From positions 1 to 5,999 of the forward strand of contig CAYXSZ010000061.1 in NCBI GenBank assembly GCA_964468425.1: 5,999 nucleotides of DNA, given 5' to 3'. The DNA is from Candidatus Woesearchaeota archaeon. GTDB lineage: Archaea > Nanobdellota > Nanobdellia > Nanobdellales > Nanobdellaceae. Below, in pieces: positions 1 to 5,922 of the stretch. A program made the position numbers and the translations under genes. Under the pieces are notes generated by a model. The model saw nothing but the letters and a program-made list of their open reading frames with translations. It was not told the DNA's origin and searched no databases. Positions within the stretch are counted from its first letter, which is position 1. The number at the start of each line of letters is the position of its first letter.

Positions 1-188
<188 letters not shown>

Positions 189-214
189 CCGACGAGCCTC
201 GTCGGTGGGGCCCC
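189..214 (+). other. GC-rich 16S 3' trailer with a hairpin-capable inverted repeat; possibly part of the pre-rRNA processing stem
   Basis: CCGACG(189-194)-AGCCT-CGTCGG(200-205) can form a 6-bp stem with a 5-nt loop. It is followed by the palindrome GGGGCCCC (207-214). GC-richness stops abruptly at 214. The 5' flank that would pair with it in an archaeal bulge-helix-bulge processing stem lies outside the window, so the function is inferred. Confidence 0.35.
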
Positions 215-248: not shown

Positions 249-1484
249 ATGTTCGAAATAAAAGAAAGAGACGCTGCTGGGAGACTTTCTATACTTAAGA
301 TAAACAATAAGAAGATTAAGTTACCCACAATTCTCCCAGTAGTTAATCCAAACAAACCAATTATCACTCCAAAAGAACTTCAAGAGAAATTCAAAATCGA
401 AGCTTTAATTACTAACGCTTATATTATCTACAACTCTTCTCTGAAAGAAAAAGCACTGGATAAAGGAATCCATAGATTACTTGGGTTTGATGGAGTAATT
501 GAAACAGATTCTGGGTCTTATCAAATGCTTCATTATAAAAAAAGTTTAGAGGTTTCCAATAAAGAAATAGTAGACTTTCAAATAAAAATAGGCGCAGATA
601 TTATTAATGTTCTTGATATTCCAACAGACATAGAAGCCACCTTCGAAGAAACAGAAAAGGATCTTCAAATCACTTTAAAAAGAATACAGGAAGGTATTTC
701 CCTGAAACCTTCAAATGTTTTAATGAATGGAGCTATCCAAGGAGGTGTTTATCCAGAATTAAGAAAGAAGGCTGGGAAATTGGTTAGCGCGCTCCCTGTA
801 GACATCTTTGCAATTGGTACTATAGTGCCTTACTTAATAAATTATCAATTCAAAAAGCTATTTGAGCTGATTCTCGAAGCCCGAGTAGTACTCCCTATGA
901 ACAAGCCAGTTCATTTATTCGGACTTGGACACCCCTTAGTTTTCCCTCTTTCAGTGGCAATAGGAACTGATATCTTTGATTCTGCTTCCTATGTGCTCTA
1001 TGCCTATGATAATAGAGTTATAACTCCTTATGGAACCCTTCGCCTTGAAAAAGCACAAGAACTTTTAATTAAGACTTCCAAAAGGATTTACGAAGCTAAA
1101 GAGCTTCTAGAAATGGAAAAGGAAGAAAGAGTCAGAGTTCTAGCAGAGCACAATCTTTTAACTTTGATAGATGAAATTTTTAGGGTACGGGACGCTATAA
1201 AAAATCATTATTTGTGGGATCTGGTGATCATAAAAGCCCATTCGCATTATAAAGTTTACGAGGCTACTAGATTCGTGCTTAAAAAGTATTATTCATGGTT
1301 GAAAGCATTTGATCCTGTAAGAAAATCTAAGGGAATTACGAGTTACAGCGACCTTCTTGAGCTACGATCAGATATCCGAAGAGCCTTAGAAAGACTCAAG
1401 GAACGTGTTAAAAAGGAAGATATTGAAGCCATCTACGAGTACGTGTATCCGTTTAACAGTTTAAAAGATGTTAAACCAATATAA
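249..1484 (+). CDS. tgtA: Archaeosine tRNA-guanine transglycosylase (arcTGT), catalytic TIM-barrel domain only; no C-terminal C2/PUA domains
   Basis: ATG start and TAA stop. From my recollection of the Pyrococcus horikoshii enzyme, there is strong family-level similarity to archaeal TGT along the whole length. Matching segments include MFEIKERDAAGR, LPVVNP, ITNAYIIY, IETDSGSYQ (Asp87), PVHLFGLGHP, DIFDSASY (Asp244), EERVRVLAEHNL and YPF near the C-terminus. At 411 aa it is well short of roughly 580 aa or more for the canonical archaeal enzyme. Confidence 0.9.
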   Translation: MFEIKERDAAGRLSILKINNKKIKLPTILPVVNPNKPIITPKELQEKFKIEALITNAYIIYNSSLKEKALDKGIHRLLGFDGVIETDSGSYQMLHYKKSLEVSNKEIVDFQIKIGADIINVLDIPTDIEATFEETEKDLQITLKRIQEGISLKPSNVLMNGAIQGGVYPELRKKAGKLVSALPVDIFAIGTIVPYLINYQFKKLFELILEARVVLPMNKPVHLFGLGHPLVFPLSVAIGTDIFDSASYVLYAYDNRVITPYGTLRLEKAQELLIKTSKRIYEAKELLEMEKEERVRVLAEHNLLTLIDEIFRVRDAIKNHYLWDLVIIKAHSHYKVYEATRFVLKKYYSWLKAFDPVRKSKGITSYSDLLELRSDIRRALERLKERVKKEDIEAIYEYVYPFNSLKDVKPI

Positions 1485-1980
1485 AAAACTAATTAAGCGA
1501 AAGTTCAGAGAAAGTAGAATGGTTTACAGGTTTAATGAAGTAAATTTGATCGGAGTAAGATCTAGTACATTCTCATATGTTAAAAAAATTCTAAACGAAG
1601 TAAACATTCAGAACAACATCCAACTAAAAATAAACGTTTGTGAGTTCGACTCTGTTGAAAAGATACTCCTCCCTAAAGGGAACAATCTTTTAGTTTTACC
1701 GGCTGAAGCTATAGCTACAATTTTTCTGCTAAATGTAACCCGAATAGACACGGAGCTGTCAAAGTATCTCCACGAATCTTGTGAAGAGTTTTTCAATGTA
1801 ACTTATTTTGTGTCTGAAACTAAAGTTTCGCAAGCGCTTGGAAAACCCAAAAAGAATTTATTTTCTAAATATAAAGAAGTAGAAAATTTTGTTTCAGAAC
1901 TATTTGAGTTAAACGATAAGTTTCATAAGAGTTCAACGAATCTCATATTAACTCTTGTTAGGGAAGGTCTTTTTCTTTAA
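1468..1980 (+). CDS. Hypothetical protein (170 aa from ATG 1468, or 153 aa from ATG 1519); no recognisable motif
   Basis: This is a long ORF in the same orientation as tgtA. Its ATG at 1468 overlaps the last 17 nt of tgtA. There is an alternative in-frame ATG at 1519 (MVYRF...). Composition is Lys/Asn/Glu-rich like the neighbouring genes. I recognise no family signature. The only opposite-strand ORF (1608-1796) is shorter and low-complexity. Confidence 0.5.
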   Translation: MLNQYKKLIKRKFRESRMVYRFNEVNLIGVRSSTFSYVKKILNEVNIQNNIQLKINVCEFDSVEKILLPKGNNLLVLPAEAIATIFLLNVTRIDTELSKYLHESCEEFFNVTYFVSETKVSQALGKPKKNLFSKYKEVENFVSELFELNDKFHKSSTNLILTLVREGLFL

Positions 1981-4322: not shown

Positions 4323-4330
4323 ATTTAAAA
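4323..4330 (-). promoter_or_regulatory. Candidate TATA box (TTTTAAAT on the - strand) for uL24, overlapping the lysS stop codon
   Basis: Its centre is about 25-26 nt upstream of the uL24 ATG at 4301, the same spacing as the eS4 candidate. It overlaps the TAA (4325-4327) that ends the LysRS C-terminal ORF. Confidence 0.35.
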
Positions 4331-5218
4331 GTTAGTAGATCTCCGCTTTAGCAAATTTATCAACTCATTTCTCGAGATTTTTCCTAGATAATAATCTACA
4401 AGTTCTGGAAATTCTTCTGCAGCATTTGTTATTCCTTCATTGTTAATTTTGACAAATGGAAATGCTATCACTTCTTTAATGGATTCTATTCCGAGAACAG
4501 CCATCGCCAATCTTTGTATTCCAACGCCAACGCCTCCCGTGGGCGGCAAACCGTACTCTAAAGCTCTTACATAATCTTTATCCATTGGCATGTATTCTAA
4601 TCCTTCTTTTTTGACTTGTTTTCTAAGTTCTTCTTCCTCTTTGAAGGCTAAATATTGCAGGAATGGATTATTTTGTTCTGAATACCCATTTCCAACTTCT
4701 AAACTATTTATATGGATCTCAAATCTTTCTACATACTCTGGATTTTCCCTATGTGGCTTTGCTAGCGGAGAAACATCTCTCCTAAACAATGTAATAAATG
4801 TAGGATCCGTTATTTTAGGTTGCACATATTTCTCAAACAATTCTTCAATGATCTTGCCTTTCCTTGAAAGTTTCTCTTCATCTTCGATTCCTAAATCTTT
4901 TTTTGCTATTTCTTTTAGCTCTTCGAAACTTAGTTTAGATACATCGATCCCAGTTTCTCTTTTTATCGCTTCTTCCATTGGAAGTCTCTCCCAAGGAGGT
5001 TTAAAGTCCAGTATTTTGTCCCCAATTTCTACTTTATAATCTCCAAATATGTGTTTAATTGTATAAGCTATCATTTCTTCTGTTAATTTCATAATTCTCT
5101 TCCAATCCGCAAATGCCCAATATACTTCGATTTGTTCAAACTCTGGATTATGTGTTGCATCGATATCTTCGTTTCTAAAACAAAGAGCAATTTCATAGAC
5201 TTTATAGAACTGCCCCAC
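4325..5218 (-). CDS. lysS: Lysyl-tRNA synthetase, class II, C-terminal part (motif 2, insertion domain, motif 3), in a separate frame from the N-terminal part
   Basis: FRNEDIDATHNPEFEQIEVYWAFADW is motif 2. ERFEIHINSLEVGNGYSE is present, and YGLPPTGGVGVGIQRLAM is motif 3. The part is colinear with my recollection of E. coli LysS. It opens with GTG at 5216-5218, sharing base 5218 with the TAG of the upstream ORF. It should be read together with 5218-5922 as one interrupted gene. Confidence 0.85.
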   Translation of the reverse strand: MGQFYKVYEIALCFRNEDIDATHNPEFEQIEVYWAFADWKRIMKLTEEMIAYTIKHIFGDYKVEIGDKILDFKPPWERLPMEEAIKRETGIDVSKLSFEELKEIAKKDLGIEDEEKLSRKGKIIEELFEKYVQPKITDPTFITLFRRDVSPLAKPHRENPEYVERFEIHINSLEVGNGYSEQNNPFLQYLAFKEEEELRKQVKKEGLEYMPMDKDYVRALEYGLPPTGGVGVGIQRLAMAVLGIESIKEVIAFPFVKINNEGITNAAEEFPELVDYYLGKISRNELINLLKRRSTNF

Positions 5219-5922
5219 TATAATCTTTTTAGATAAGTTTCGGGGGAAATTGATAAGTAAACTTTATCTTTTGTTGCCCATAGTTCTGTAACAAAGGGCC
5301 TAGCAAGAGCCCCTCCATAAATTTGCTGTAATTTTGGAGTGTAGATTTCTAGGAAATCTCTACTATTCAAGAATTCTCTAAAGTATTGTTTTATTTTAGA
5401 AACAACTTTAATAATCCTCCGAGCTTCGTCATTTAGTGCAAAATCTAGATATCTTTGTTCGTATCTTTTTGCAACGTCTTTAATTCCATACCATTGATGT
5501 GGAATCCCTCTTAAGGTTATAGATAACACTTCGAAATCTTTAACGTTTATGGATAATTCACCTCTTCTTGTTTTCATTACATTTCCATAAACTCCAATAA
5601 TATCTCCCAATACTAGGAGATTTTGTACTATATAGAATTTTTTCTTAGGAAGCACATCTTTTCTAAATAACAATTGAATTTTCCCAGTATCATCTTTTAA
5701 ATCTGTAAAGATTATTCCACCATGAGACCTTATTGCACTTATTCTACCTGCCATGTGATAGTAATCTTTCGTATGCGATCCTGGATCCAGATCTTTATAT
5801 CTTTTCAGGAGATCACTTACTGAAACATTTACAGGATATTCATATTTTCTAAATGGATCTTCCCCAAGTTCTATTAATTCTATTAATCTTTTTACGTTAT
5901 CTCTAAACATTCTAGAGTTCAT
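5218..5922 (-). CDS. lysS: Lysyl-tRNA synthetase, class II, N-terminal part (OB-fold anticodon-binding domain through motif 1)
   Basis: ATG at 5920-5922. The OB-fold region reads HMAGRISAIRSHGGIIFTDLKDDTGKIQL...GDIIGVYGNVMKTRRGELSI. It is followed by RYEQRYLDFALN, FLEIYTPKLQ, GGALARPF and ISPETYLKRL, then TAG (5218-5220). The ORF stops exactly where the colinear LysS alignment continues in the next ORF. Confidence 0.85.
   Translation of the reverse strand: MNSRMFRDNVKRLIELIELGEDPFRKYEYPVNVSVSDLLKRYKDLDPGSHTKDYYHMAGRISAIRSHGGIIFTDLKDDTGKIQLLFRKDVLPKKKFYIVQNLLVLGDIIGVYGNVMKTRRGELSINVKDFEVLSITLRGIPHQWYGIKDVAKRYEQRYLDFALNDEARRIIKVVSKIKQYFREFLNSRDFLEIYTPKLQQIYGGALARPFVTELWATKDKVYLSISPETYLKRL

Follow-up and report, generated by a model that had tools for sequence, protein, structure and literature searches.

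A nanoarchaeal split archaeosine tRNA-guanine transglycosylase without cysteine and, most likely, without its structural zinc site

The structural zinc site has long been treated as a fixed property of the tRNA-guanine transglycosylases (TGTs). Chen et al. called its four ligands absolutely conserved, in an analysis from which sequences lacking zinc ligands were dropped, and the same paper describes how the archaeal enzyme (ArcTGT, or TgtA) of P. horikoshii dimerises via the zinc-binding domain (PMC3074131). A clear exception is found in the report by Kawamura et al. (2016, NAR 44:1894; PMC4770233), according to which the ArcTGT of T. acidophilum (Ta1493) does not carry the CXCX2CX22H motif, restores archaeosine in an arcTGT deletion strain of T. 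kodakarensis at 60 °C and not at 85 °C, and is weakly active, and is insoluble in E. coli. The paper further places the zinc site opposite the catalytic pocket and describes it as missing in some ArcTGTs, of which the one of Ferroplasma acidarmanus is another motif-less case. Activity in vivo has been demonstrated for Ta1493 only, and the paper does not appear to mention the Nanoarchaeota. Given that Ta1493 is active, the zinc motif must be considered typical of TgtA and not defining for it, and the kind of enzyme described below, a descriptive grouping and not a clade, has in fact been known since 2016. Within the Nanoarchaeota, a split ArcTGT was described for N. equitans (NEQ124/NEQ305; Podar et al. 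2013, PMC3655853), and among the open-access papers that were found there was none noting a missing zinc site in this group, N. equitans included.

The stretch of DNA that was analyzed (the window, 5,999 nucleotides) constitutes one contig (C61) of a metagenome-assembled genome of 475 kb, which is fragmented into 96 contigs and 70% complete. Its features are listed in Table 1, together with two ORFs encoded elsewhere in the same genome. The 411-aa ORF that follows the 16S rRNA gene matched PF01702 with 211 bits and the TgtA equivalog model TIGR00432 with 423.1 bits, above the cut-off of 350, and in a phmmer search of the PDB its residues 2-385 aligned to P. horikoshii ArcTGT (1iq8; E 5e-102). 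The ORF is an ArcTGT/TgtA, and the identification as arcTGT in the earlier note on this DNA is borne out by the TIGR00432 score. Its closest named relatives are the TgtA proteins of Nanopusillaceae and Nanopusillus, and one of the assemblies that contain the same contig was obtained from a hydrothermal-vent metagenome. The LysRS that is read in two abutting frames in the window is encoded by an intact 532-aa ORF in one (L042) of three assemblies with an identical TgtA.

Table 1. Features of the window and of two further contigs of the source genome
Feature	Contig	Position	Strand	Remarks
Archaeal 16S rRNA gene, 3' end	window (C61)	1-189		precedes the tgtA ORF
tgtA, catalytic half of split archaeosine tRNA-guanine(15) transglycosylase	window (C61)	249..1484	+	411 aa, 0 Cys; covers the TIM barrel, the former zinc subdomain and some of C1
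Asp87, catalytic	window (C61)	507..509	+	P. horikoshii Asp95; invariant in 263/263 TgtA
Asp244, catalytic	window (C61)	978..980	+	P. horikoshii Asp249; invariant in 263/263 TgtA; numbering via 1iq8 alignment
Former zinc-knuckle segment, residues 266-289, LEKAQELLIKTSKRIYEAKELLEM	window (C61)	1044..1115	+	translation, 1iq8 alignment
Ile274, Thr276 and Lys278 codons	window (C61)	1068..1082	+	columns of P. horikoshii Cys279, Cys281 and Cys284
His301, kept fourth zinc ligand	window (C61)	1149..1151	+	in AEHNL, opposite P. horikoshii His307 (ALHNL)
ORF170, 170 aa	window (C61)	1468..1980	+	overlaps tgtA stop by 17 nt; conserved downstream neighbour
Methyltransferase; ribosomal proteins uL5, eS4, uL24	window (C61)		-	strand opposite to tgtA
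Class II LysRS in two abutting frames	window (C61)	4325-5922	-	1-base overlap at 5218
RaSEA-ArcS fusion ORF, 469 aa	C57	628-2037	+	radical-SAM and DUF5591
TGT_C2+PUA ORF	C18	3-404	+	cut by contig start; sole such piece in the genome

The source organism appears to be hyperthermophilic on the basis of several sequence characteristics. Matches to reverse gyrase, the presence of which is a hallmark of hyperthermophily whether or not the gene is split, were recovered on two contigs (C64, 3926-5038, and C60, 2927-3700). The two pieces cover model positions 556-918 and 917-1170 and thus abut, and the gene might be split near this point, as it is in N. equitans. Furthermore, the 16S segment has a GC content of 66.7%, compared with 37.7% genome-wide, and an IVYWREL fraction of 0.46 was calculated.

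The translation of the tgtA ORF contains no cysteine at all, exactly as had been noted before, and the residues 266-289 that were quoted at the time are identical to the translation of positions 1044-1115. Considering the Cys fraction of the proteome (~0.96%), around four Cys would be expected in a protein of this size and the probability of finding none is ~0.02, so that zero Cys, taken alone, is merely mildly unusual; the loss of the specific ligands is the stronger result. In the phmmer alignment to 1iq8 the sequence LLIKTS-KRIY faces the P. horikoshii sequence FPCSCPVCSKY, and the CXCX2CX22H motif is thereby broken, with His301 as the one ligand out of four that remains. The assertion that the complete CxCxxC...H site was absent therefore stands for the Cys triad, which has been replaced between flanks that align, and fails for the histidine. 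The active site presents a different picture. Both Asp87 and Asp244 had been said to be retained, which the comparison of 263 TgtA sequences corroborates, and the alignment to 1iq8 also identified Asp123, Gln164 and Gly190 as the counterparts of P. horikoshii Asp130, Gln169 and Gly196. D87, D123, G190 and D244 are invariant in the 52 Cys-less as well as in the 211 Cys-bearing sequences, and at the Q164 position 251 of the 263 have Gln and the other 12 have His. All four zinc ligands are kept in every one of the 211 CxCxxC-bearing proteins. As judged from these alignments, the structural zinc site has most likely truly been lost from the TgtA of the window, with no sign of another metal site in its place.

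Comparison with the described enzymes makes clear what is shared and what is not. Like P. horikoshii ArcTGT (1iq8, 1j2b), to which it is 46% identical, the window TgtA possesses the catalytic Asp pair and the pocket residues, and in both proteins (in the model, for the window TgtA) a hairpin-helix subdomain takes part in the dimer interface; the P. horikoshii enzyme differs in that it binds zinc via Cys279/Cys281/Cys284/His307 and is a single chain of 582 aa with C1, C2 and PUA domains. With Ta1493 the window TgtA has in common that the CCCH motif is missing and the catalytic residues are kept, although Ta1493 belongs to another phylum and represents an independent loss. It is also a single chain of 600+ aa with insertions in C1/C2 from an acidophile living at 56 °C, whereas the window TgtA is a 411-aa half from an apparent hyperthermophile. 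The split architecture is shared with NEQ124/NEQ305, and the N-terminal half of the N. equitans enzyme (P0036) is 47% identical to the window TgtA and likewise devoid of Cys; the N. equitans group is distinguished by a deletion of ~5 residues in the former knuckle, which has its full length in the group of the window. The bacterial and eukaryotic queuine TGTs (e.g. Z. mobilis Tgt, human QTRT1) share the TIM-barrel (TM 0.73) and the catalytic Asp pair with the window TgtA and differ from it in sequence (18-24% identity), in substrate, in the tRNA position that is modified and in their four zinc ligands, for which absolute conservation has been stated (PMC3074131). The statement in the earlier note that every structurally characterised TGT holds a zinc ion agrees with the structures considered here and, considering Ta1493, does not amount to a rule for the family. 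The uniqueness that was implied for an ArcTGT without zinc site does not hold in view of that same precedent (PMC4770233) and of the 52 motif-less proteins recovered here.

The CxCxxC motif is missing in around one fifth (52 of 263) of the full-length TgtA proteins surveyed. Of 147 TgtA representatives of 50%-identity clusters, surveyed in addition to the first 120 homologues, 18 full-length ones lack it, all 18 of which keep the catalytic residues; a nineteenth motif-less representative is a fragment. Going by their source names, the Cys-less proteins stem from Nanoarchaeota, Thermoplasmatales, Thermoplasmata, Thermoplasmataceae, Cuniculiplasma, Aciduliprofundum, Poseidoniales and Altiarchaeota, and the motif is kept in the sampled TgtA of Methanomassiliicoccales, methanogens and Thermococcus. 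Within the first 120 homologues it is present in all 82 non-nanoarchaeal sequences and lost in 34 of the 38 nanoarchaeal ones, including N. equitans, the remaining four having kept it. The sampled genomes of the same order comprise 17 related at the level of the family and two at the level of the order, among them single-contig genomes that are 94-98% complete and one that is probably N. equitans itself. Each of the 19 encodes one full-length tgtA, and in none of them does it contain CxCxxC. The loss of the Cys triad is thus fixed across the order, in all 19 genomes sampled.

Parsimony on a FastTree phylogeny of the 263 proteins, from which the trait columns had been left out, yielded 12 changes of state, which should be read as a rough count. 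Within the Nanoarchaeota the trees call for two changes, whether or not the trait columns are included. Given that an AU test did not reject a single Cys-less nanoarchaeal clade (p = 0.08), two separate losses within the Nanoarchaeota are favoured by the tree and not proven.

Some further observations were made in the course of the survey. A genome of the same class and another order (G027) encodes a TgtA of 678 aa that also lacks CxCxxC. In the 50%-identity library the Cys-less Nanopusillaceae cluster is represented by P0032, which is one of the few relatives that do carry the motif, and surveys based on representatives alone would consequently miss the loss in this clade. Finally, a 4-kb contig labelled Bacteroides ovatus (CAVDQR010000134.1; L074) contains an archaeal tgtA of the Methanomassiliicoccales type and has probably been mis-binned.

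Taken together, the sequence comparisons and the models make it very likely that the ORF encodes the catalytic subunit of a split ArcTGT, and that this subunit is active and does not depend on zinc. The protein would most likely exchange G15 of the tRNA for preQ0, with Asp87 and Asp244 acting in a TIM-barrel pocket that has remained unchanged. A separately encoded C2+PUA piece would assist it, and a RaSEA-ArcS fusion protein would subsequently convert the preQ0-tRNA to archaeosine, all within what is presumably a hyperthermophilic, host-dependent nanoarchaeon of the Nanopusillaceae type. The C2 and PUA domains are not part of the 411-aa ORF. A piece on contig C18 with such domains matches the C-terminus of ArcS equally well, which makes its assignment to TgtA less than certain; it may belong to either enzyme, and it might be that this one RNA-binding piece is shared by the split TgtA and the truncated ArcS fusion. 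The latter, encoded on contig C57, combines a radical-SAM half resembling RaSEA (TIGR01210, 120 bits, positions 16-186) with the core domain of ArcS (DUF5591; NF040592, positions 287-404) and has none of the TGT-like, C2 and PUA domains that ArcS possesses. Its sequence includes PCSFRKPYKRSKTH, which we liken to PCX3KPYX2SX2H, presumably the signature motif of ArcS. A single-chain RaSEA-ArcS of this type may not have been described before.

The preferred reading, that of an active ArcTGT subunit, has to be weighed against the improbable alternative that the protein is a pseudoenzyme, or acts on another substrate, and has a role other than the formation of preQ0-tRNA. Such a change of role would fit the loss of TGT from many related DPANN genomes: no TGT-family match was obtained in 12 out of 20 genomes from other orders of this class, most of them >90% complete, and much of the class can accordingly, it seems, do without the archaeosine pathway. 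It would also fit the outcome of the search for preQ0 synthesis genes, as the sole candidate for QueC in the source genome (18.5 bits) proved to be ThiI and no match to QueD was obtained in this 70% complete genome, a degree of completeness at which such absences are no proof. The apparent lack of these genes suggests equally that preQ0 is probably salvaged from the host. Against a changed role speak the score above the TgtA equivalog cut-off, the invariance of all catalytic and substrate-pocket residues, and the conservation of tgtA as a single-copy gene across the order. Among 33 Cys-less nanoarchaeal homologues the mean column identity is 68% and the catalytic residues are all invariant, so that the nanoarchaeal Cys-less TgtA looks functional and under purifying selection. 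In addition, the RaSEA-ArcS gene is retained, and considering that it has no use without preQ0-tRNA its retention counts for the function of TgtA. The fact that the zinc-less Thermoplasma enzyme was proven active (PMC4770233) points in the same direction.

A canonical Cys-bearing tgtA elsewhere in the genome, which had been named earlier as a possible sign of a decaying paralogue, was found neither in the source genome nor in the single-contig relatives that are 94-98% complete. In the source genome tgtA was the only TGT-family match; being 70% complete this genome does not prove the absence of a second gene, and it is the near-complete relatives that mitigate the doubt.

A second alternative, which we consider very unlikely, holds that the metal is still bound, either by His301 together with hairpin residues, be they carboxylates or others, or by ligands provided in trans by ORF170 or the C2+PUA piece. 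The first version can point to His301, which is kept in the window TgtA, and to a hairpin rich in glutamates (E267, E271, E282 and E285). These carboxylates are unconserved, though, with the exception of E285, which the zinc-containing enzymes conserve as well. The column of the first Cys is occupied by I, L, F or V in 40 and that of the second by T or S in 41 of the 52 Cys-less proteins, i.e. by hydrophobic residues and Thr/Ser, none of which serve as metal ligands, and the third column is variable. The fourth-ligand column contains His in 211/211 of the Cys-bearing proteins and in 36/52 of the Cys-less ones, and elsewhere in the Cys-less clade, within the Nanopusillaceae, V, A or N stand in its place. 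The His thus ceases to be conserved where the Cys triad is missing, which speaks for a dead metal site that was replaced by packing, and not for one that was rebuilt.

The second version of the alternative, with ligands in trans, derives its appeal from the existence of a conserved and translationally coupled neighbour. Homologues of ORF170 (24-34% identity in tblastn) adjoin the 3' side of tgtA in 17/17 of the family-level relatives with tgtA, and tblastn produced no match near tgtA in two other families of the same order. The family has the motifs SNTxDF, PxEG and NxxYxVSExxSK in common. Searches of Pfam and NCBIfam with ORF170 gave no match, and the protein-atlas leads were PP-loop/QueC-like only, with a score of 0.80 that is below the reliable range. 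Most members contain neither Cys nor His (0 of each), and a family that is essentially devoid of both rules out ORF170 as the donor of the zinc ligands. A protein of 622 aa (P0004) was considered as a possible TgtA-ORF170 fusion and rejected, given that it shows no similarity to ORF170 and has its extra length at the N-terminus.

In the structural models the former knuckle keeps its shape. The AF2 model of TgtA, based on 119 homologues, has a pLDDT of 93.3 and superposes on 1iq8_A with an rmsd of 1.4 Å over 388 columns (TM 0.90). It predicts a (beta/alpha)8 barrel and a C-terminal helical subdomain that can be superposed on the solved ArcTGT. The former knuckle is predicted to form a beta-hairpin (273-275, 280-282) and, after it, a short helix (283-287). 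Its pLDDT is 93-95 with the full alignment, and the same elements return with a pLDDT of 89-93 when only Cys-less sequences are supplied, yet AF2 and ESMFold have learned the TGT fold and the dimer from zinc-containing structures, so that confident models are no proof of the stability of a metal-free hairpin. What the models do indicate is that the TgtA sequence is compatible with the TGT fold. The homodimer model scored an ipSAE of 0.86 versus 0.00 for the best control, a pass that may reflect memory of the like dimer that has already been solved (1iq8). In the calibration of the tool, 20 of 30 proteins solved as pairs attained this ipSAE mark, as did 1 of 23 that were solved as single chains. 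The separate runs share at least 94% of the contacts, the partner has a pLDDT of at least 87, and the modelled interface takes in residues 268-283. In the structure thus predicted, the hairpin that once bore the three Cys would keep its shape and remain part of the homodimer interface. Judging from the sequence, the hydrophobic Ile274 would, together with Thr276, pack where the zinc sat.

That the Cys-less TgtA might be an artefact of sequencing, assembly or binning, as the fragmented 70% complete source genome could suggest, can practically be dismissed: the identical 411-aa protein was recovered in three independent metagenome assemblies, which leaves no room for an assembly error, and the Cys-less state recurs in 34 nanoarchaeal homologues and in the 19 related genomes.

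The Cys-less nanoarchaeal TgtA reveals no new enzyme, pathway or mechanism. It does correct the textbook view that the four zinc ligands of TGTs are universally conserved, and it extends the published exception of Thermoplasma and Ferroplasma to a whole order of apparently hyperthermophilic nanoarchaea and several other lineages. What is added here is the order-wide fixation of the loss, its recurrence, the regular pattern of replacement and the decay of the orphaned His. Scarce zinc in sulfidic vents, or the saving of cysteine by a host-dependent cell, might lie behind the loss. More tentatively, and with somewhat less than even confidence, we propose that the zinc site of the TGTs has been discarded repeatedly and that in the Nanoarchaeales a hydrophobic Ile/Thr staple stabilises the dimer hairpin and preserves the activity of the enzyme at 80-95 °C. 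Considering that the T. acidophilum enzyme loses its function at 85 °C, a zinc-less enzyme that works in that range is not guaranteed. If the staple were real, it would contrast with the situation in the heat-labile zinc-less Thermoplasma enzyme, and the nanoarchaeal TgtA would provide a natural template for the metal-free stabilisation of zinc knuckles. The family as a whole offers a natural experiment, in which the same hairpin occurs with and without zinc, and within it the nanoarchaeal TgtA is a candidate for studying how packing may take the place of a zinc knuckle at very high temperature.
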